Shown: piece by piece, positions 51,330 to 62,113 of the stretch
Layout of the letters: each line of letters starts with the position of its first letter
How positions within the stretch are numbered: position 1 is the first letter of the stretch
Assembly (NCBI GenBank): GCA_965215005.1
Contig: CBDCCZ010000012.1
Location: 153,763 to 217,762, forward strand
Direction of reading: 5' to 3'
DNA: 64,000 nt
Origin: Kofleriaceae bacterium
Lineage (GTDB): Bacteria; Myxococcota_A; Polyangia; Haliangiales; Haliangiaceae
The notes under the pieces: generated by a model
What the model was told of the DNA's origin: nothing
The model's database searches: none
Seen by the model: the letters and a program-made list of their open reading frames with translations, nothing else
Translations under genes and position numbers: made by a program

Positions 51330-51506
51330 CGGGCAGCATCGCCTAGCGACGCGCTGCGGATCACGGTTGCAGGTGGCTTTGCATGTGGCGCCCGCGCAAC
51401 AATGATGCGCTGGCCGCTACAAGGTGCTGCCGGCGCTCGTGCGCAGGCGCACGCCCCGGCATCGTTGCCATTGCACACGGCGGTGGCGCCCTCCTACGCT
51501 GCAGAC

Positions 51507-52523
51507 ATGAACGCATCGCCTACGTTGTCTTTAGCCGCGGTGCTCGCAGTGGTCAGCGCCGGCTGCTTGAGCACCTCCCACGTCATTCCCAAGAATGAGC
51601 TCATGCGGATCGCTCAGAGCGATCCCAATCAGCGCGGCGAGCGAGTCCGCGTGGTCCAGGGTTTCGCCGGAGAGGAGGAGCCGCCGCAGCGCACGCCGGT
51701 CACCTCGAGCACGACGGTGGTGGTGGTTGGTGGCGTGGGCGGCGGTGGTGCACCCGCGCGGCGCAGCACGCGGGTTGCGGCGAGTCGCGGCGGCGTGCGC
51801 TCCTCGCGTGGCGACCTCGCCAGCGCCAAGGCAAGCGAAGCGTACTGGTGGATCGTGGCCGGCGCTGCGTTGGGAGTTGGCTTGGCGGTCACCGAAGGCG
51901 CTCGCTACAACGGCTGGGTTCAGCTGCACCCGATGCATCCCGTCCATCTTTTCGGCCGCTACGGAGAGTACACCTGGATGCCGCTCGCGCAGCTCGATCC
52001 CGAGACCGCGGCATGGGCCGAAAAAGCCATCGTTCGCCCCGAAGAAGGCCCTTGGCGACGACTCGAGCGCGCACCGCTCGACCGTCACGGTCTCACCTAT
52101 TCCATCTTGCTCGGCGCGGCGGAGCTGCCGTCGGCAACCGGTAGCGAGCACACCGGCTTTCTGTCGCACATTCAGTTCGGCGTGTTTCCCACCCAGGTCA
52201 TCGGCCTCAACCTCGACATCGCGTTGGGCTGGGCCGAGAACGACCAGCTGGAAACCATCTTCGACACCCGCTGGTCGCTCGAGCTGCAAGCGTATCCGCT
52301 CCAGGCGGGTCGCTTTCACGTCGGCGGCTACGGCGCCCTCGGGCTGGCGGCGCGCTTCGAAGATGGTCCCGACGGTGTCGATCAGCGCGACACGGTGCTC
52401 TCGGGGGGTCTGCTCATGCAGCTGGACCTGACCACGACCCTGGCACTCACCGGCCGGGTCGGCGTGGCCTCACTGTTTGACGAGATCTCCACCGAAGGCA
52501 CCATCGGCATTTCGGTGTATTGA
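51507..52523 (+). CDS. Hypothetical lipoprotein with probable C-terminal beta-barrel
   Basis: SAGC lipobox; amphipathic beta-strands ending in aromatic Y. Confidence 0.6.
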   Translation: MNASPTLSLAAVLAVVSAGCLSTSHVIPKNELMRIAQSDPNQRGERVRVVQGFAGEEEPPQRTPVTSSTTVVVVGGVGGGGAPARRSTRVAASRGGVRSSRGDLASAKASEAYWWIVAGAALGVGLAVTEGARYNGWVQLHPMHPVHLFGRYGEYTWMPLAQLDPETAAWAEKAIVRPEEGPWRRLERAPLDRHGLTYSILLGAAELPSATGSEHTGFLSHIQFGVFPTQVIGLNLDIALGWAENDQLETIFDTRWSLELQAYPLQAGRFHVGGYGALGLAARFEDGPDGVDQRDTVLSGGLLMQLDLTTTLALTGRVGVASLFDEISTEGTIGISVY

Positions 52524-53339
52524 TGGTCGCTGGATGATCGCCGGCTTGGCGGCGAGCTCACTCAGCGTCCTTCGCGGTGCTGGAGCTCGGTCGGCTCTGC
52601 CAAGGTCGCGGGCACGGCGCCATCGACCGTGGCGTCGGTGCAGCCGGGGATGGCGCGAACATCCGCTGACGCCTCCCGCAGGTGCGACCGACAGCTCCGC
52701 CGCCAGTGAGACGTTATCGGACCGCAGCCCCGCCGGTCCCACGAGCTCGAGCGCGCTCGGCGGCAGCTCGCCGAGCCAGCGCATCCGGCCGTCGATCCAC
52801 ACCGTAAGCTCGCTGCCGAGGATCTCGGCGCGAATCGAGTGGCTCGAGCCAACCTCGAGCGTGGGCGGGCGCCGGCGCCGCTGCGGGTGAATCGTGTGAT
52901 AGCCGGCGGTGCCGCACTCGGCGTGGGTATGGCTGCCGCGCTGACGCTTGAGCGAGACGTCGATGCCGGGTTCGGGCTCGAGCCGCCACATTACGTAGAT
53001 CAGGTTGCAGCCGTCTTCGGCGCGCAGCTTGAGCCCGACCTGCCGGCGCAGTTGCCCAGAGTGCAGGAGGCGAACATCGCTGCTCGGTCCGCGATAGGTA
53101 AACTGCAGCTCGGCCGCATCGCCGCCGGAGCCGAGCGCAACGGCGCGTACCGTCGGCTCGTCGATCGCCAGCTGTCCCGGCAGGGCTTCGGCTTGCTCGA
53201 TGCCGCGGGTGGCGCACAGCGACTCGGGCACCATTGGCGCCACCACCAGCTGCGGCTCGGGATCGGGCTCATCCGTGAGGCTCCAGCCGCAACCGGTGAG
53301 CGCGGCGAGAATCAGAGTACAGCCCCAGGTGCCGCTCAT
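52470..53339 (-). CDS. Lipoprotein with probable concanavalin-A/lectin-like beta-sandwich
   Basis: LTGC lipobox; strand-rich; HSIRAEI..SELTVWIDG...GPAGLRSDN; ATGA overlap with the upstream gene; 3' end uncertain. Confidence 0.55.
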   Translation of the reverse strand: MSGTWGCTLILAALTGCGWSLTDEPDPEPQLVVAPMVPESLCATRGIEQAEALPGQLAIDEPTVRAVALGSGGDAAELQFTYRGPSSDVRLLHSGQLRRQVGLKLRAEDGCNLIYVMWRLEPEPGIDVSLKRQRGSHTHAECGTAGYHTIHPQRRRRPPTLEVGSSHSIRAEILGSELTVWIDGRMRWLGELPPSALELVGPAGLRSDNVSLAAELSVAPAGGVSGCSRHPRLHRRHGRWRRARDLGRADRAPAPRRTLSELAAKPAIIQRPSIHRNADGAFGGDLVKQ

Positions 53340-54394
53340 CGCCCCTCCTCGAGGATCTCGCGGAGGCTGGCGACGTGCGCCTCGAGATACGCATGCTCGG
53401 CCTTGACCTCGACCCACTCGAACCACACCGTGCGGCGGAGCCGCCGGCTGCTCTCACCGCCGATGCGAGTGAGCTGCTCGAGCTGGGTCTCGAGCTCTTC
53501 CAGCAGCGCCCCGGTCTCCGTGAGCCGCTGCTGCTGATCCACGAACAGCGACTGCAGTGACTCGCGCGCTTCCGGGTTGGGCTCGTCGCGAAGCAATCGC
53601 CGGCGCCCGGCCGCGGCGCGTTCGTTGGCCGAGCCCTGCAATAGCCAACCGAGATTGAAGCTGGCAATCGCCACCGCGAAGAACGGCGAGTCATCGGCGT
53701 CGCTGGTGAGGAAGGCGTCGTAACCGGCGCGGACACTCACGTCCCAGGAGCGCGCGCGCCGCAATCGGCCATCGTAACTCTCGACGTCGGCGTCGGCGCG
53801 ATACAGCGCGGCAAGCGCCCCCGAGGAGCTCGCCGATGATGCCGGCAGCGTGCTCAGCTCGGCGCGGGTGGTAGCGGCCAGCTCGCGGAGCGCACGGATG
53901 CGCATGCGGGTGGCGGTGACTTCTTGTACGGTCGCGCGACGTGCGGAAAGGTCGTCTGCCGCGCGAGCGAGCATTTCCCCTGCTTCGGTAAGCGAGCTGT
54001 CGAGCACCTCGAGACGAGCCCGAAGCGCCCGCTGCAGGCGCGCGTCGCGAACGTCTTGCAGGGCGTGAAAGCGGCGGCAATCCGCGCGGGCGCGATCGCG
54101 GGTGAGGCCCGCTTGATAGAGGTTGCCAAGACTGTAGGCAACACCCGCCGTGAGCCGCAGATCGTCGGAGGTGGCTTCTGGCGCCACCGTAATGACCGGT
54201 TGATCGATATAGCCAATGCTGCCAAACACGGCCGGCATCGCCAAGCGAGCAGCGTCGGCGTCGGCCGCGCCGCCCACGGCGTCGCAGTAGCCGCTAAACG
54301 CAGCTTGTGCGCTTGCTTGGGCAACTGCCGCCAGATGAACCGAGACGAGCGCAGCCACAACCCCAGCTCTTTTCATCACTCGCGATGGTCTCAT
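53336..54394 (-). CDS. TolC/outer-membrane-factor-like protein
   Basis: Signal peptide (AQA); two repeats of paired amphipathic beta-strands followed by long helices. Confidence 0.6.
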   Translation of the reverse strand: MRPSRVMKRAGVVAALVSVHLAAVAQASAQAAFSGYCDAVGGAADADAARLAMPAVFGSIGYIDQPVITVAPEATSDDLRLTAGVAYSLGNLYQAGLTRDRARADCRRFHALQDVRDARLQRALRARLEVLDSSLTEAGEMLARAADDLSARRATVQEVTATRMRIRALRELAATTRAELSTLPASSASSSGALAALYRADADVESYDGRLRRARSWDVSVRAGYDAFLTSDADDSPFFAVAIASFNLGWLLQGSANERAAAGRRRLLRDEPNPEARESLQSLFVDQQQRLTETGALLEELETQLEQLTRIGGESSRRLRRTVWFEWVEVKAEHAYLEAHVASLREILEEGR

Positions 54395-55908
54395 AAAAGC
54401 AGTGGCCGGCCACCAGCGAACAGCACATCTGCTTCCGCCGCGTCAGCGGTTTCTAGATCCACAGACACCATCCGACCCCGTAGCACCTTCTCGCGCTGGG
54501 GATGCTTGAACGTAACCTCCCCAGGCAACACCTCGATGACCTCGCCAACGCGTCCACAAAACAACATCTCGAGATGACACCCGTAAAGCGACGTTCCCGC
54601 CTCGAGTCCCTCGAGGTTGCTATAGGGCACGAAGGCTACATTGGCATTGTCGGCTACGGCGCGCAGAAAGGGCGACTGTGACAAACCCGCGAGAATCTGG
54701 TTTTGACGCTCTAGGCTGAGGGCCAATGCCTCGCGATTCTCGACCGCCTTGGCGGTTTCCAGGCGCGACAGCTCATATTCTTGTTTGATGCGCAGGACGT
54801 CGTAGCTGAGCGAGCCGTCGCCGCCTTTCTCGGTAACGATGGCATCGAGTGCGCTCGCTTCGGCCTCGAGCTCGGCAGCGCGTGTTTCGTATTCCGCTTG
54901 TCGCTCGGCAAGAGAGAGGGTCGAGCTGGTGATTTGCGCGAGTTGATATTTGCCCGATAGGAGGTCGCTGCGGTCGATGAGACCGGCGGCGAGCTCTTCT
55001 GTCATGCGCTTGCGCGAAGAGCTGGCGAACGCGCGGTTGGAGCGCGCTATTCGAGCCCGGGCGCCGGCGTAGTCACGCGCGAGCTCGCGCACCCGGTCGA
55101 GCGCCGAGCGGCGGCCGGAGAGGTCGGCGCGGATGGCGCGGGCAAACTCGGACTGAAAGGTCTGCTGCACCGCGATGTAGCGATCGGCATGACTGAGCTC
55201 GGCGACGATGCGATCGCGCTCATTTTGCTGCGTCGCCAACTGCGCCTGCAGCGCCAGTACCCGCTCATCGCTCTTGGACACCACCATGGGCTGTATCCAA
55301 CTGTCACTCACGAAATAGAATGCCGTGGTTGCAATGTAGCCAACGAGCACCACGACGATGAGTGTGAGGACGCCAAAGCCCAGCAGCCGATACGCCGAAA
55401 CGAGCAGCTTGGCGGTCTTTTGCGACAACTGCTCTGCGGAAGGCAGGCTCGGAGCGCCCAATCCCAAACTCTCATACGCGCTCCACCGATTGGCTGCCGC
55501 AGCCGGTTCTTGATACGCGGGCACGCTGGTGAGACCGACGGGCGGCGGCGTGACCTTTGGCTCGATAGCGGAGGCCTCGCCCGTGGCAGGCATGGCAGCT
55601 CGCGGCGCCTCGGGCGGCGGCGGCAGTGGCGGTGGGCTCGCCGTGCTCGGCCGCTGGGGCGAAGCTTCAGACGCCTCAGGGCCATTGTAGCCGGGTAGCT
55701 TCCAACCAGCGGCGAGCTCGGCCGCCGTGACGCCATGGCGACGCCGGCGCGGCTTGCCGAACGGAATCACCGTGTTCGAGCGCGGCGGAAGACGCGGCGC
55801 CGCTCGTTTGCCACTGGCGACGCGGTTGGAAGGGGTCGAGGGTTGTCGCGGTTGTGGCTTGGCCGCGTCGCGCGCAGGAGAAGAGTCTTGTGAGTTGGGT
55901 GCTGACAT
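54391..55908 (-). CDS. Membrane-fusion (HlyD-like) periplasmic adaptor
   Basis: Pro-rich N-tail, single TM, ~200-aa coiled coil, C-terminal beta domain (VAFVPY...GEVIEV). Confidence 0.6.
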   Translation of the reverse strand: MSAPNSQDSSPARDAAKPQPRQPSTPSNRVASGKRAAPRLPPRSNTVIPFGKPRRRRHGVTAAELAAGWKLPGYNGPEASEASPQRPSTASPPPLPPPPEAPRAAMPATGEASAIEPKVTPPPVGLTSVPAYQEPAAAANRWSAYESLGLGAPSLPSAEQLSQKTAKLLVSAYRLLGFGVLTLIVVVLVGYIATTAFYFVSDSWIQPMVVSKSDERVLALQAQLATQQNERDRIVAELSHADRYIAVQQTFQSEFARAIRADLSGRRSALDRVRELARDYAGARARIARSNRAFASSSRKRMTEELAAGLIDRSDLLSGKYQLAQITSSTLSLAERQAEYETRAAELEAEASALDAIVTEKGGDGSLSYDVLRIKQEYELSRLETAKAVENREALALSLERQNQILAGLSQSPFLRAVADNANVAFVPYSNLEGLEAGTSLYGCHLEMLFCGRVGEVIEVLPGEVTFKHPQREKVLRGRMVSVDLETADAAEADVLFAGGRPLLL

Positions 55909-56121
55909 CGTGGCTTGGGCGCCGCCAGGTGCAAAAACATCGCCACAGGAATCGTCGACCGGAGGTCGCGAAATCAGCTACGAGACGCCCTCGAGCGCCC
56001 ACTGTTGTGGTGGGAGCCATCCCCACCACGAGGCCCCACCCCCCAACCGCCAGACCCGCGCGATTGCTCGAGAGTTGCGTATCACCGCGAACACAAGCGG
56101 TATGCGGGCTCGCTTCTCGAA

Positions 56122-56149
56122 CGAGCAAGAACGGCATCACTCTTGCTCG
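56122..56149 (+). promoter_or_regulatory. Candidate sigma54 promoter embedded in a 9-bp inverted repeat
   Basis: CGGCAT-CACTC-TTGCT (56132-56147); CGAGCAAGA-N10-TCTTGCTCG. Confidence 0.6.
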
Positions 56150-56168
56150 AGTCACGACAGCACCGAGC

Positions 56169-57380
56169 ATGTCTTCGTTTCCCATCTACCTGTTCATCTT
56201 CATCGTGTTTCTGAACCGCTACGTGTTCGGATTTTACCTAACGTTGGTTCGTGGGCGGCGGTTTGACGACACGGTTGCAGGCTATGAGCCCACCATCACC
56301 GTGGTGGTCCCACTCTTCAACGAGGGTCGCTCCATCTACGACACGATCGAGAGCTTGGTTCGACTCGACTACCCGGCGGACAAGCTGCAAATCACCGTCG
56401 TCGACGACTGCTCGACCGACGACAGCTATGAATGGGCCGCTCGTGCCGCCACCCAATACTCGAACGTTCGGGTGCTGCGCAACCCCGTAAACGTCGGCAA
56501 GCGCAAAGGCATCAATCATGCGGTTCGCGAGGCGACCTCTGAAATCATCGTCTCCGTCGACTCGGATGTCATCGTTTATCCAACGGCGCTTCGCGAGTTG
56601 GTCGCTCGCTTTACCAGTCCAGAGATTGCAGCGGTCGGCGGTCGAATCCACGTTTCGAACCCAAACGACAACTGGCTCTCCAAGCTGCAAACTATCAAGT
56701 ACTACTTTGGCCAGGAGCACCTAAAGAACCTCGAGCGGTCACTCCGCTCGGTGATGTGCCTTTCCGGCTGCCTTACTGCCTACCGGCGCCACGTGCTGAT
56801 GGAGCTCGAGCCCATCCTCGAAAGCCGCAACATCCTCGGAATAGCCATCAAGTACGGCGAAGACCGGTTTTTAACCCGACAAATCGTCAAACACGGCTAT
56901 CGCACTGTGATGACCATGGATGCGATGTGCTTCACCAAAGCACCCACGACACTGCGCGGCTACTTCAGCCAACAACTGCGCTGGAAGCGCTCCAACATCG
57001 TCGACTTTGCCTGCGGCCTCGGCCACGCCTGGCAACTCCATCCGCTCCTGTGTCTGCAGTACTTGTCGATGTTCCTGTTGCTGCTGGTCTATCCGTTCGT
57101 CATCGCGACACACGTGCTCGAAGGAACGTTCTTCGAGCTAGCCAGCTTCCATGTGGCAATCATTGCCGCCTTTGGCCTCATCTACTACTTCGCTCCATCG
57201 ACGCGCGCGCTGCCGCCGTGGCTGCGCGTGCATCCGATCTCGTTTCTGCCCATGGCGGTGTTGATGCCGGTTGCCTACATCCTGCTAACGCCGCTCGGAC
57301 TCTTCACCCTAGACACCTCGAGCTGGGAAACGCGCGGCCATGGCGCCGTGGCCACGCCTGGAGCCGGAGCACCGAAATGA
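56169..57380 (+). CDS. Processive GT2 synthase, NodC/hyaluronan-synthase-like
   Basis: DDCSTD, GKR, VDSD, SGCLTAYRR, GEDRFLT, QQLRW; N- and C-terminal TMs; 403 aa. Confidence 0.88.
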   Translation: MSSFPIYLFIFIVFLNRYVFGFYLTLVRGRRFDDTVAGYEPTITVVVPLFNEGRSIYDTIESLVRLDYPADKLQITVVDDCSTDDSYEWAARAATQYSNVRVLRNPVNVGKRKGINHAVREATSEIIVSVDSDVIVYPTALRELVARFTSPEIAAVGGRIHVSNPNDNWLSKLQTIKYYFGQEHLKNLERSLRSVMCLSGCLTAYRRHVLMELEPILESRNILGIAIKYGEDRFLTRQIVKHGYRTVMTMDAMCFTKAPTTLRGYFSQQLRWKRSNIVDFACGLGHAWQLHPLLCLQYLSMFLLLLVYPFVIATHVLEGTFFELASFHVAIIAAFGLIYYFAPSTRALPPWLRVHPISFLPMAVLMPVAYILLTPLGLFTLDTSSWETRGHGAVATPGAGAPK

Positions 57381-58120
57381 TCCTCGCCGCCCATCAACCC
57401 GCGTTTCTGCCGTGGCTCGGCTATCTCCACAAGATGGCCATCGCCGACGTCTTCGTGGTCATGGATGACCTGCAATACGAAGCGCAGAACTTCCAAAACC
57501 GCAACCGCGTCAAGCTCAACAGCGGCGCGGGCTGGCTCACGGTGCCCGTCGAGCGTGGCTCGCAGAGCGACTCGATTCTGCAAAAACGCATTCAAAACGG
57601 CGGCAATCCAAAGCAACACTGGCAACGTCGCGCGTGGATCACTCTCAAGACGCACTACGGCCGCGCAAGCTACTTCTCCGACTATGCAGAGGAGCTCGAG
57701 GACGTATTCACCCGCCCTTGGAACAGCCTGTTCGAGCTCGACTGGCACATGCTCACCCTGGCGCGCCGCTGGCTCGGCATCACCACGCCGGTTCTTCGAT
57801 CTTCGGAGCTCGCACTCATCGGGCAACGCAGCGAACGCATCGTCGACATGTGTCGCAAGGTGGGCGCTCATAGCTATCTCTCTGGCAGCGGCGGCTCATC
57901 CGGCTACCTCGAGCTCGAAGCATTTGCCGAAGCCGGCCTTGCGGTCGCATGGCAGCAGTTCCGTCATCCGCTACATCAACAGCGTTATCCAGAGCTCGGC
58001 TTCATCTCGCATCTGGGCTTCATCGATTTGCTCTGCAACTGCGGGCCCCAGAGCCGCGACATCTTGTTTGCCACCGCAGCGCCCCGCGCCACGACTCAAC
58101 ACCTGGAGGCCAGCTCGTGA
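57377..58120 (+). CDS. WbqC-like family protein
   Basis: HQPAFLPWLGY...D.FVVMDDLQY...QNRN; WLTVPV; YLSG. Confidence 0.9.
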   Translation: MILAAHQPAFLPWLGYLHKMAIADVFVVMDDLQYEAQNFQNRNRVKLNSGAGWLTVPVERGSQSDSILQKRIQNGGNPKQHWQRRAWITLKTHYGRASYFSDYAEELEDVFTRPWNSLFELDWHMLTLARRWLGITTPVLRSSELALIGQRSERIVDMCRKVGAHSYLSGSGGSSGYLELEAFAEAGLAVAWQQFRHPLHQQRYPELGFISHLGFIDLLCNCGPQSRDILFATAAPRATTQHLEASS

Positions 58121-58749
58121 ATCGAATCTTGGAAGAGAAAGGCGGCCGGGTGTTGGCATTCGGCGCCCACCCCGATGATCTCGAGGTCGGCGCCGGTGGG
58201 TTGCTAGCGCGTTTGTCCGATGAAGGCGCCGAGGTCACGATGGCCATCGTCTCGGTCCCTAGCGACAGCAAATCGCGAGCCGACGAGGCGCGCGCCAGCG
58301 CCGACATCCTCGGCGCAGACGACCTGTTCATCCTCTTTGAGGAGAAGCAGTGTCGGGTAGAGGATATTCCGATGCACGAGTTGGTCCGCCGCTTCGACCA
58401 AATCGTTGCCGACGTGCGCCCCGATCTCGTCATCACTCACTCGGCCCACGATCTCCATTGGGATCACGGTCTCGTCAACCGCGCGACGGTTTCGTCGCTG
58501 CGGCGCACGCCATGCGACTTGCTGGCATTTCTCTCCAGTCCAGAGATGAACGCTCAGTCGCGCTCCATTGGGCAGTGCTTTGCCGACATCAGCAGCACGA
58601 TGGACCGCAAGATCGCCGCTATCGGCGCGCATCACTCGCAATTATCCAAGCTAGACCTAGAGTCGAGCCGGGACTTGGCGCGCGCGATGGGCCGTATCAG
58701 CGGGTTCGAGTACGCGGAAGCGTATGAGGTGCTTCGGGTGCGCATTTGA
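58117..58749 (+). CDS. PIG-L/LmbE-family de-N-acetylase
   Basis: AHPDDLE, HSAHDLHWDH, HHSQ, YAEAY. Confidence 0.9.
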   Translation: MNRILEEKGGRVLAFGAHPDDLEVGAGGLLARLSDEGAEVTMAIVSVPSDSKSRADEARASADILGADDLFILFEEKQCRVEDIPMHELVRRFDQIVADVRPDLVITHSAHDLHWDHGLVNRATVSSLRRTPCDLLAFLSSPEMNAQSRSIGQCFADISSTMDRKIAAIGAHHSQLSKLDLESSRDLARAMGRISGFEYAEAYEVLRVRI

Positions 58750-58784
58750 GGCACGAGGATGCCTGAGGAGTCAATGGAGTACAT

Positions 58785-58833
58785 GCTCTATGGGACACCC
58801 ACGCCTCGTCCGGCGATGAGTGTCCCATAGAGC
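58785..58833. repeat. Long inverted repeat (14-bp perfect arms) after the GT2 operon
   Basis: GCTCTATGGGACAC...GTGTCCCATAGAGC with further inner CGCC/GGCG pairing. Confidence 0.85.
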
Positions 58834-58891
58834 GCCGCTACTGAGCTGGCAGCTTGCCACGTGGAATCGGGGCAATAGCCGCAGCGCCGCA

Positions 58892-58907
58892 GGGCATGCA
58901 GCTTGCT
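58892..58907 (+). promoter_or_regulatory. Candidate sigma54 promoter
   Basis: GGGCAT-GCAGC-TTGCT, GG-N10-GC spacing. Confidence 0.5.
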
Positions 58908-58988
58908 GAGTCCCAGGGAATGAGTCGACTCCGCCGCGCCTGTCGGTACCTGTGCTACTCGAACGTGGACCTCTCTTTCGCGTCATCG

Positions 58989-60659
58989 ATGCGGCTTCTT
59001 GTGCTCAGCATGCTCGCCGCCGCGAGCGGTTGCGACGGTGTCATCGTGAGCCCGGGCGGCGGTGAGGGAGACAGTCCTGCGGGAGAAACACCACCGGCGC
59101 TGGTCAATGCGTATGCGCCCGCCCGCGTGCGGCGCCTGAACTTCGATGAAATACAGCGCTCAGCGCGAGACATCTTTCTGGCCAACGTCGCGTCTCCGTC
59201 GCCCTTGCCGGCATCCCTCACCATCCCCGGTGAGAAAGTTCCCCACCAGTTCGACACTCAGTATGACCGTATGACCGTCTCAACAGCGGTCGCGGAGGCT
59301 CTGCAACAGTATGCGGAGTGGGTCGCCGTCAATACCGCGGCAAATCTCGACTCGGTGCTCCCTTGCGAGTGGGATACCGCGGAAGCGAGTTGCGTCCGCG
59401 ACTTCATCGAGACGTATGGCTACCGAACCTGGCGCCGGCCATTAGAAGCAGCCGAAATCACCATGCTGGAAGACCTCCACGCGACGTTGCGCGGCGCGGA
59501 AGGCGCGGGGGTGGAGCTGGGTATTCAGGGCGTCGTCGAAGCGCTCCTGCAAGCGCCTAGCTTCCTGTTTCGCACTGAGCTCGGCGAGGCATCGGCGTCG
59601 GGCTCAGAGGAGCCGTTCGTCGTGCTCACGCCTTACGAGACGGCGACGGCCATGGCGTACTTCCTGTGGCGCTCAGCGCCGGACGACGAGCTTCTGGCCG
59701 CGGCGGAGGAGTTGGCTACCGCCGAAGGACGAAGGAAGCACGCGCGGCGCATGCTAGAGGATCCGCGGACAAGAGCAAGCATTCGGTCGTTCGTGACGCA
59801 GTGGCTCGAGGTCGACGGTCTAGGCGATCTGCTGCTCAGTCAGGAGCAATATCCCGAGTGGGATCCGTCGATGAATGGCGCCCTGCTGCAGGAGATCGAG
59901 CGATTTGCCGATACCATTGTTTTGTCTGGGAAGGGCTATGAGGGGCTCCTCACCGCCCCGTCCACGATTGCGAACCAGACCATCGCCAGGCTCTACGGCG
60001 TCGAAGCAGCGTCCGGGACTGACTGGGCGCCTCTAGAGCTCGACCCGATGCAGCGCAGCGGCGTCCTCACCCAACCCGGATTTCTCGCTTCGCACTCGCC
60101 CCCGGCCGATTTCTCACCCATCTTCTTGGGCCTGTTCGTGCGTACCAAGCTGCTTTGTCAACTCATTCCGGAACCGGCGGACGACATCCCTCAGCTGCCC
60201 ACAGATCCGACCCTGACGGCGCGCGAGCGGTACTCTGCCCATTCCGCTGATGGCGGCTGCCAGGCCTGCCACCGCATGATGGACCCGGTTGGCTTCGGCT
60301 TTGAGCGGTTCGACGCGCTGGCGCAGTGGCGTGCAACTGACAAGGCCGTGGCGCTCACCGGCGCCGGAGAGCTCCTCGGCACCGACGCGGATGGCTCGTT
60401 TACCGATCCGGTGGGGCTCGGTGCGCGGCTCGTCTCCAGCACCGTCGCGCGCGACTGCTTCGTCGGTCAGATGTACTCCTACGCGCTCGGCCGCGGCGTG
60501 GCCATCCCGTCTTCGCGGCTAGAAGTCGACGAGGTGGCGATCGCGCAGGCGATGGAGGATTTCGGCTCCGGCCTGGGCGACGTTCGAGAGCTCATGCTCA
60601 CCGTCGTCGCCAGCGACGCCTTCGTACGCCGCGATCCCAGCAATCTCGAAGCACGCTAA
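58989..60659 (+). CDS. DUF1592/DUF1588/DUF1595-type lipoprotein
   Basis: ASGC lipobox; RRLN, WRRPL, PSFLFR.E, YFLW.SAPD, RSGVLT, CQACH..MDP.GF.FE.FD. Confidence 0.88.
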   Translation: MRLLVLSMLAAASGCDGVIVSPGGGEGDSPAGETPPALVNAYAPARVRRLNFDEIQRSARDIFLANVASPSPLPASLTIPGEKVPHQFDTQYDRMTVSTAVAEALQQYAEWVAVNTAANLDSVLPCEWDTAEASCVRDFIETYGYRTWRRPLEAAEITMLEDLHATLRGAEGAGVELGIQGVVEALLQAPSFLFRTELGEASASGSEEPFVVLTPYETATAMAYFLWRSAPDDELLAAAEELATAEGRRKHARRMLEDPRTRASIRSFVTQWLEVDGLGDLLLSQEQYPEWDPSMNGALLQEIERFADTIVLSGKGYEGLLTAPSTIANQTIARLYGVEAASGTDWAPLELDPMQRSGVLTQPGFLASHSPPADFSPIFLGLFVRTKLLCQLIPEPADDIPQLPTDPTLTARERYSAHSADGGCQACHRMMDPVGFGFERFDALAQWRATDKAVALTGAGELLGTDADGSFTDPVGLGARLVSSTVARDCFVGQMYSYALGRGVAIPSSRLEVDEVAIAQAMEDFGSGLGDVRELMLTVVASDAFVRRDPSNLEAR

Positions 60660-60694
60660 CCGCCCTCGATGCTTCTATCCGAAGGAAAACCGCG

Positions 60695-62113
60695 ATGAGT
60701 GAGAACTACTTGAAGCAGCTCTGCTCTCGACGCAGTGTCTTGCGGAGCTTGGCCCTCGGAGCAGGCGGAGTGGCGTTTGCCGGATCGCTTGGGAAACGAC
60801 GCTCGCGCGGGGGAGCTTGGGCGCAGGCCGCAGATACCGCGACCGCTCCCAAGCGACTGCTAGTGCTCTACAACCCGAACGGCATCCGTTATGAGAATGG
60901 CGGCCGCGACTGGGTCACGTGGGGCACTAGCGAGACCGACTTCGCGCTCAGCGACATCACCCTGCCCCTCAAAGATCTACGTGACCAGCTGGTCTTCTTC
61001 GAGAACCTCTCGTTCGGCATGACCGCCTCTTGGGGAGACACACATCGCGGCGGGCGCAAGGCCGCTCTAACGGCAGCCAAGCTCGTTCAGCGGGATGGTG
61101 AAACCGGCGATTTGGCCCTCGGCAGGCCCTCGGGGCCTTCCATTGATCAATTTCTCGGCCAAGCGCTAGGGCGACGAGTTACACCGAAGTGGCCGTCGTT
61201 GCTCCTCAACCTGCTTGGCTACGGCAGCACCTCAGAGGTTTCGTTCGATGCCAACGGCGCGAGCATCACACCGTACGAAAGCCCGTGGATCGTCTACGAG
61301 AAGATGTTCTCGGAGCTCGTAGATCCATCGGGGACTACTGACCCAGGGCTGCTTCATCGCGTGCTCCGCCGGCAGAGCGTGCTCGACGTGGTCCACCAGG
61401 ATCTCGCTCGTTTTCGCCGACGACTTCCCAGCGAAGACCAGGAGCGCGCCGACGCTCAGCTCGCAGCCATTCGTACGCTCGAGGAGCGGCTGGTCGACTC
61501 CAACGTCCCCGACTCGTGCACGCCCCCGGAGCTGGGCCAACCTCTGGACCCGCGCAAGACCAACACGTATCCACAGCTCCTGCGAGCCACCTCCGACCTC
61601 TGTGTCGCCGCTTTCGCCTGCGACCTCACCCGGTTTGCCGTGATCGAAGCCCGCTCCTCGTTTAGACGCGCTCCATCGGACTTTCCACCGATCAACGGCG
61701 AGCACTACGAGCATCATTACTCGCACGAAGATCCACTGAAGTTTGCGCAGCTCAAAGCCTTCTACATGAACGAAGTGGCCTATATCGCTTCGCGTCTGCA
61801 GGCCATTCCGGAGGGCAACGGCACCATGCTCGACAACACCGTCATCCTCTGGACGACGGAAATCTCTACCGGCCATAGTCACGCGCGAATGCCGTGGATG
61901 ACGGTTGGAGGCCAGAATCTCGGTGTCCGCACCGGTCGAGCGCTGAAGCTGCCAGCATATTACCAAAACCCGGTCGAGGCCCAGAACCGCCGCTATAACG
62001 GCTATCCACATCGGCGACTCCTCGTTTCGCTCATCGAGGCGATGGGTGTCGATGCGACGGGATTCGGTGATCCCATGGTCCCCGGAGAGCCGATGGAAGG
62101 CTTTCGCGCCTGA
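60695..62113 (+). CDS. DUF1552 (HXXSHH)-family Tat-exported protein
   Basis: SRRSVL Tat motif; PKRL...PNG; SIDQ; FACDLTR; HHYSH; TMLDNT. Confidence 0.88.
   Translation: MSENYLKQLCSRRSVLRSLALGAGGVAFAGSLGKRRSRGGAWAQAADTATAPKRLLVLYNPNGIRYENGGRDWVTWGTSETDFALSDITLPLKDLRDQLVFFENLSFGMTASWGDTHRGGRKAALTAAKLVQRDGETGDLALGRPSGPSIDQFLGQALGRRVTPKWPSLLLNLLGYGSTSEVSFDANGASITPYESPWIVYEKMFSELVDPSGTTDPGLLHRVLRRQSVLDVVHQDLARFRRRLPSEDQERADAQLAAIRTLEERLVDSNVPDSCTPPELGQPLDPRKTNTYPQLLRATSDLCVAAFACDLTRFAVIEARSSFRRAPSDFPPINGEHYEHHYSHEDPLKFAQLKAFYMNEVAYIASRLQAIPEGNGTMLDNTVILWTTEISTGHSHARMPWMTVGGQNLGVRTGRALKLPAYYQNPVEAQNRRYNGYPHRRLLVSLIEAMGVDATGFGDPMVPGEPMEGFRA

Follow-up and report, generated by a model that had tools for sequence, protein, structure and literature searches.

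A NodC/HAS-like synthase linked to a predicted TolC-type channel and adaptor: a probable glycan secretion locus in Kofleriaceae

We analyzed a 64,000-nucleotide stretch of DNA from a Kofleriaceae bacterium (GenBank assembly GCA_965215005.1, contig CBDCCZ010000012.1, positions 153,763 to 217,762 of the forward strand; hereafter the window), which carries six genes, A to F, in two divergent arms that form one system. In our reading, the synthase D, the adaptor-like protein C and the predicted channel B are likely to carry out synthase-dependent secretion of an N-acetylglucosamine (GlcNAc)-containing β-glycan, with E and F modifying amines, A assisting and sigma54 in control. Gene linkage and motifs were observed directly and the folds were predicted; from these we infer complex formation, export and chemistry. 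The features of the locus, in window coordinates, are:

A, 52470-53339, minus strand: predicted lipoprotein with a ConA/β-sandwich-like domain
B, 53336-54394, minus strand: short TolC-type outer-membrane factor (predicted)
C, 54391-55908, minus strand: adaptor-like protein (predicted)
D, 56169-57380, plus strand: processive-type family 2 glycosyltransferase (GT2) synthase, 403 aa
E, 57377-58120, plus strand: WbqC-family protein
F, 58117-58749, plus strand: PIG-L/LmbE-family N-deacetylase (family assignment)
Sigma54-type -24/-12 motif toward C-B-A, 55931-55945, minus strand: kept in 51/64 loci
Sigma54-type -24/-12 motif toward D-E-F, 56132-56146, plus strand: kept in 53/64 loci
Hairpin 3' of F, 58785-58833, plus strand: local feature without a U-tract, not conserved

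Conservation of the two arms

All six open reading frames (ORFs; GC content at third codon positions 0.72-0.78) and the 260-bp spacer between the arms were recovered as described in the original prediction, which was made from the sequence alone, and so were the overlapping junctions (ATGA at 53336-39, 54391-94 and 57377-80, GTGA at 58117-20). In a scan of species genomes we found 78 loci, mostly titled Kofleriaceae, Haliangiales or Myxococcales, 73 of which are close. We counted full sets over the 49 close loci with sufficient flank, excluding 24 short contigs, and found all six genes together in 48 of them. Where the contig permits, D is present in 60/60 loci, E in 58/58, F in 53/54, B in 68/68 and A in 62/62. 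Among 40 related genomes, all eight with a close C hold the six genes in window order. In another family of the same class the genes form a single operon, D-E-F-C-B-A (locus L252), and D-E-F-C-B is visible in locus L251. Co-occurrence of the arms, the synteny check set out beforehand, is thus borne out, and the two divergent arms are one system. Two loci (L057 and L073) have the D-E-F arm and a C-like fragment duplicated beside the full cluster, and two others (L092 and L110) carry two copies of A, L092 being without F.

The spacer holds two back-to-back GG-N10-GC motifs, one per arm. The motif 5' of the synthase had been noted before and is kept in 53 of 64 related loci, compared with 1.1 expected from shuffles; the motif toward C, absent from the earlier account, is kept in 51 of 64 (1.0 expected). 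The source genome contains a match to the sigma54 DNA-binding domain, and in locus L118 a sigma54 activator gene lies directly upstream.

No ABC, RND or MFS partner is kept beside the core in the loci examined, and a motif test found ABC-ATPase-like ORFs in just 2/73 close and 2/80 metagenome loci (see below). The six-gene loci likewise have no conserved nodA, nodB or nodIJ neighbors and no conserved TPR-porin or CE4 neighbor. glmS lies near F in 29 of the 73 close loci; since these appear to be one sub-lineage, we do not count the adjacency as evidence for GlcNAc.

Predicted functions of D, B, C and A

Pfam places D in GT2/Chitin_synth_2, E in WbqC and F in PIG-L, the identities originally proposed; for A, B and C neither Pfam nor NCBIfam gives a match at E ≤ 0.1. 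D contains the motifs DSD, GEDR, QQLRW and WETRG, has one N-terminal and three C-terminal hydrophobic segments, and ends about 13 residues after the WETRG gating-loop motif with no regulatory tail. It is about 30% identical to both NodC and HasA. Its best NCBIfam match is NodC (TIGR04242, 169.9 bits versus a cut-off of 550), and it also falls below the cut-off of PgaC/IcaA (TIGR03937, 111.6 versus 422 bits), so that membership fails in both; the CelA model gives 37 versus 699 bits, and D has no c-di-GMP-binding domain. The best PDB sequence matches are class I hyaluronan synthases (HAS; E 3e-22). In a tree obtained by a quick search with few outgroups, the 18 C-linked GT2s included fall into a single clade with SH-aLRT 98, to which NodC and HasA do not belong; a separate analysis agrees. 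The residue R349 of the NodC L19/R349 ruler corresponds to R346 of D in one alignment and to G336 in another, an unstable mapping. The source genome encodes a second NodC/HAS-like GT2, 35% identical to D (G000:C54:108417-109628). On a Paenibacillus plasmid, a HAS-motif GT2 (GDDR) is accompanied by two polysaccharide deacetylases and a GH18 gene (L124:1556-9186), a possible chitosan-like system judging from these genes.

B, about 350 aa long, has a signal peptide, two amphipathic β-hairpins and long helices. Its predicted model (pLDDT 88) contains the two β-hairpin plus long-helix repeats that define outer-membrane efflux proteins (OEP), and both hairpins show membrane-type strand alternation. 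In a Foldseek search with the model, 38 of the 38 matches at E ≤ 0.001, among the matches listed, are outer-membrane factors, and these also fill the top seven rows of the VIA comparison (Z 13.6 to 10.4; the best has Z 13.6 and a root mean square deviation (r.m.s.d.) of 9.8 over 311 aligned residues). At the sequence level, 20 of 41 B family members match PF02321 at E ≤ 1 (best 2e-6), and the window B itself has no PF02321 match. We take B to be a predicted short TolC-type outer-membrane factor.

C consists of a variable, Pro-rich N terminus, one conserved transmembrane (TM) helix (residues 175-193), and, in its model, a long α-hairpin and a β-barrel. The predicted model thereby combines the inner-membrane anchor, α-hairpin and β-barrel of an adaptor. 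In membrane fusion proteins (MFPs) a lipoyl (barrel-sandwich hybrid) domain flanks the hairpin; no such domain is visible in the C model, where a single strand precedes the hairpin, and the 25 families listed for 32 C family members include no HlyD or lipoyl Pfam. Searches of PDB sequences with the B and C alignments returned nothing useful. The pair originally proposed as MFP and TolC-like is supported by structure comparison, B being predicted as TolC-like and C, through a match to EmrA, as adaptor-like without a visible lipoyl domain.

A carries a predicted lipobox (LTGC, Cys17) followed by a ConA/β-sandwich-like domain (approximately residues 40-227), in agreement with the lectin-fold lipoprotein first proposed. 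By Atlas features, which involve no alignment, A lies near the β-sandwiches PF06439 and PF08244 (GH32-C). In 48 of 70 homologues a lipobox-like motif stands before the domain. Conservation in A falls mainly on basic and aromatic residues, among them invariant Arg, Lys, Trp and Tyr, and does not extend to the last ∼60 residues. We rejected A as a GH16 enzyme, as it has no conserved acid pair. In loci L117-L119, L212 and L216, A is fused to the C terminus of B.

A D-C-B core and a portable accessory pair

B was found in 16 of 301 genomes of the phylum. Of the out-of-family genomes with a B match, 12 in all (L214 was counted through its B search match, and two repeat known loci), 11 have D, C and B co-directional, and neither E nor F was seen in any of these 11 loci within the stretch fetched. 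The same three genes stand out in metagenomes: in the best 80 of 531 loci, an Angelobacter-like clade, a GT2 is present in 74 and B in 75, with the next neighbor family in 12, making GT2-C-B the sole conserved unit of this set. The core also extends to other phyla. On a plasmid of Paraburkholderia sp. PGU19 (L123), C-like, B-like, TviB-like dehydrogenase, GH16 and GT2 genes are co-directional, C and B having been recognized by eye through a motif and then by a homologue search. Relatives of the PGU19 C occur in Paraburkholderia, Trinickia, Ralstonia, Caballeronia, Cupriavidus, Candidatus Angelobacter, Acidiferrum and Methylomirabilis. The B family comprises 383 clusters at 50% identity with E ≤ 1e-10 and has no dedicated Pfam model. 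The invariant core consists of D-C-B, with WbqC/PIG-L as a portable accessory pair outside it.

A second locus type (L025-L027, L029, L031-L036, L038, L039, L041 and L042) has a short C of ∼200-280 aa with a cut hairpin, usually adjoining a GT2 51-58% identical to D, and the locus itself contains no B. Of these 14 loci, 8 have a DUF2279 (PF10043) gene within the fetched stretch and 2 an acyltransferase_3 gene; DUF2279 may take over the role of B here. In a third type (L028, L030, L037 and L040), a highly divergent GT2 of 570-585 aa has B-like and C-like genes on its upstream side.

E and F have neither a signal nor a TM segment. E matches PF08889 with 215.5 bits (cut-off 21.3). F scores above the PF02585 cut-off (69 bits), and its best NCBIfam match, BshB1, is below cut-off. 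PIG-L/LmbE enzymes carry the metal motifs AHxDD and HxDH, and F conserves AHPDD and HWDH. A PIG-L gene lies within 1.5 kb of WbqC in 17 of the 30 WbqC loci examined, 5 of them without D; some of the loci without D adjoin a PF02719 nucleotide-sugar dehydratase and Wza, and the pair also occurs in unrelated plasmid sugar loci. Since the pair is portable among sugar loci, E and F may act on nucleotide sugars, by deacetylation and re-acylation. A WbqC-family protein has been annotated as 'putative glycine transferase' (PMC7253198; here and below, statements refer to the portion of each cited source available to us), and glycine as the acyl group added by E is our guess from this annotation. The available part of a Pasteurella capsule paper describes the glycine transferase BcbH and does not mention WbqC (PMC13552107). 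We found no usable Atlas match of WbqC outside its own family. A possible parallel to F and E is the BshB/BshC pair, in which deacetylation precedes aminoacylation. The source genome has a second, distant WbqC without a PIG-L neighbor (G000:C12:1772-2419).

One locus (L253:8225-13520) is a canonical OEP-HlyD-GT2-WbqC-PIG-L operon whose GT2 is unrelated (27% to D), and thereby assembles the same logic a second time. Where E and F are missing, lineages often hold other glycan enzymes: a CE4 deacetylase in L117 and L118, a β-helix protein gene in L116, CE4 and heparinase II/III genes in L209, the dehydrogenase and GH16 genes in L123, and an adjoining UDP-sugar dehydrogenase gene in L216. Of these swapped-in accessories, the CE4, heparinase II/III and UDP-sugar dehydrogenase genes point to an N-acetylated glycan.

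The genes flanking the cluster in the window are not conserved among related loci. On the A side, the unconserved C-terminal tail of A overlaps the convergent ORF 51402-52523 by 54 bases (52470-52523); this ORF has no Pfam match and is lipoprotein-like, with a β-rich C-terminal part. On the other side, a DUF1592/1588/1595/1585 gene and a DUF1552 gene (58854-62113) follow 3' of F, again not conserved with the cluster. The hairpin reported after D-E-F is strong in the window sequence (z -4.3, equalled by 0/200 shuffles) but is not kept: z falls below -2 at the equivalent place in only 3/55 related loci, and the hairpin is not repeated elsewhere in the source genome. With 3/55 loci and no U-tract, we rejected it as a conserved terminator.

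Proposed route, alternatives and known systems

We propose that D polymerizes the GlcNAc-containing β-glycan at the inner membrane, where it would take the place of the usual pump, polymerization powering export. The conserved TM helix of C would pack against D, whose small membrane domain it may complete, and C would bridge the periplasm and hand the glycan to a B trimer serving as the outer-membrane exit. At the periplasmic side of B, A may bind or clip the chain. In the cytoplasm, F would take off the N-acetyl group and E would then re-acylate the amine, most likely on the nucleotide sugar, and sigma54 would switch on both arms.

Several observations weigh against this reading. The genomes and loci counted include many kin, so that counts such as 48/49 overstate independence. 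B superposes on TolC proteins with an r.m.s.d. of 10-14 Å and a TM-score of about 0.3. For C, the sole Foldseek match at E ≤ 0.001 is EmrA (4tko; 3.8e-5, TM-score 0.34), and in VIA generic coiled coils dominate, EmrA ranking only 13th. Short C and a related GT2 occur in loci without B, and two genomes of this kind gave no B match. D has three likely TM helices and an interface helix, as in NodC, which is reported to be without a channel (PMC4132801); because its membrane part resembles that of NodC, D may not suffice for translocation by itself. WbqC has no solved relative in the PDB, and we found no biochemical paper on it in the open literature. Other points concern the glycan itself. GDDR is invariant in hyaluronan synthases (PMC11750622), and 72 of 72 close D relatives carry GEDR, as does NodC. 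The six-gene loci have no dehydrogenase among their conserved neighbors. Position 177 of D, discussed below, is occupied by I, V or L in the metagenome clade, and the Paraburkholderia enzyme, which has a linked dehydrogenase, carries V there.

With GEDR in place of the invariant GDDR, D does not qualify as a class I HAS. The HAS residues R287 and R296 of XlHAS1 stabilize glucuronic acid (GlcA; PMC11750622). K177 and K186 of D align with these two positions, with the offset counted by hand, and are kept in 72/72 close relatives; NodC has E at the first position and R at the second. For the backbone we slightly favor a uronate-containing, glycosaminoglycan (GAG)-like chain, with about an even chance of being right, and regard a chitosan-like homopolymer as a reasonable but less probable candidate. 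Because the clade of the metagenome and Paraburkholderia enzymes has a hydrophobic residue at position 177, different lineages probably make different glycans.

The genes could instead follow a route similar to that of Nod factors, in which D makes short chito-oligomers in the cell, with F and E in the roles of NodB and NodA, and C-B together with an unlinked transporter mediates export. NodC is the best NCBIfam match of D, GEDR and the number of TM segments are NodC-like, and F and E look cytoplasmic. We nevertheless consider this route unlikely: the neighborhood holds no conserved transporter, most out-of-family loci show neither E nor F, the GH16, CE4 and heparinase-like neighbors suit a polymer, and D retains the WxTRG loop of HAS and chitin synthases. 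It is slightly less probable still that D-C-B secretes an unmodified glycan with WbqC/PIG-L as a co-regulated passenger for another glycan such as O-antigen or exopolysaccharide. Such a passenger could explain the pair without D in 5 of the 30 WbqC loci, including the Wza-type loci with the PF02719 dehydratase, and its occurrence on unrelated plasmids, but E and F overlap within the D operon, F is 74-84% conserved, as high as D, and the pair stays with D when gene order changes (L251, L252).

The least probable of the alternatives is that C-B is no glycan conduit, being instead an anchor, a scaffold or an exporter of a protein or lipid-linked cargo, with the glycan leaving otherwise or staying periplasmic. 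In its favor are the apparent lack of a lipoyl domain in C, the short length and divergence of B and the short-C loci without B, and a review calls the comparable XcsAB-TolC experimentally unvalidated (PMC12430437). Set against this, in the loci read B was never met without C nor, contig permitting, without GT2, and no secreted protein family is kept beside the core in the loci examined. Secretion through D-C-B is our preferred reading.

The architecture had been put forward as unrecognized. We indeed found no paper on this locus in an open-literature search, which covered neither subscription journals nor supplements, one of which could list it; the combination of synthase, MFP and TolC, however, has been proposed before. 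In Sinorhizobium meliloti, BgsAB-TolC is a proposed tripartite exporter of mixed-linkage β-glucan, whose production is abolished by loss of tolC, and it resembles our locus in gene content: GT2, adaptor and TolC-type channel without an ABC pump (PMC13438883). BgsA, however, has seven TMs and a c-di-GMP-binding tail, whereas D is NodC/HAS-like and tailless; BgsB is HlyD-like and tolC lies outside bgsBA, whereas here a divergent adaptor and the channel share one cluster; and the Bgs product is a glucan, whereas the six-gene locus adds sigma54 motifs, a lectin-fold lipoprotein and N-tailoring enzymes (PMC13438883). Cyanobacterial XcsA-XcsB-TolC, proposed to export cellulose, likewise pairs a synthase with an adaptor (HlyD-like in Xcs), a TolC-like exporter and an accessory glycanase, but has a cellulose synthase with PilZ and its TolC outside the operon (PMC8892547, PMC12430437). 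In alginate export, Alg44 has a MexA/HlyD-like domain (PMC8892547).

D shares with NodC its ∼30% identity, GEDR plus QQLRW and a similar size (PMC4132801; locus L121), and the logic of cytoplasmic deacetylation followed by acylation recalls NodB and NodA. It differs in scoring 170 versus the cut-off of 550, in K177 where NodC has E, and in the absence of nodA, nodB and ABC genes. With class I HAS (HasA in L122) it shares basic residues at both GlcA-binding positions and the WxTRG gating loop, but it has GEDR rather than GDDR, WET rather than WGT and fewer TM helices (PMC11750622), and no hasB or hasC is linked in six-gene loci. The predicted outer-membrane-factor and adaptor folds recall type I secretion and tripartite efflux (TolC, OprM, EmrA, HlyD), but there is no ABC, RND or MFS partner, B has only ∼350 aa and C no visible lipoyl domain. 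The source genome encodes seven other canonical OEP genes over the cut-off.

The six-gene architecture works like BgsAB-TolC and XcsAB-TolC and is not a new category, yet it is a member of neither: its synthase belongs to another class and lacks a c-di-GMP domain, its channel is dedicated and linked, its adaptor is divergent, and it adds a lectin-fold partner and N-tailoring. New here is the combination of a NodC/HAS-like synthase, an operon-encoded dedicated channel and adaptor without Pfam model, and cytoplasmic WbqC/PIG-L tailoring. More tentatively, the core could define a multi-phylum secretion class in which the synthase is minimal and NodC/HAS-sized, the adaptor lipoyl-less and the TolC short and dedicated; its myxobacterial version would export an undescribed N-aminoacylated GAG-like polymer made from pre-modified nucleotide sugars, a possibility we rate as rather doubtful.

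Passage of a polysaccharide through a TolC-type channel has been proposed for two glucan systems from genetics with a shared, unlinked TolC, and a review calls the cyanobacterial TolC-exit model unvalidated (PMC12430437). Because channel, adaptor and synthase are co-encoded here, down to a three-gene operon of ∼3.5 kb, the model is open to reconstitution and structure determination. WbqC, a family without a solved relative, gains a defined context from the locus. The locus further points to a new GT2 clade between NodC and the hyaluronan synthases; lineages of this clade exchange tailoring enzymes and may produce new amino-sugar polymers.

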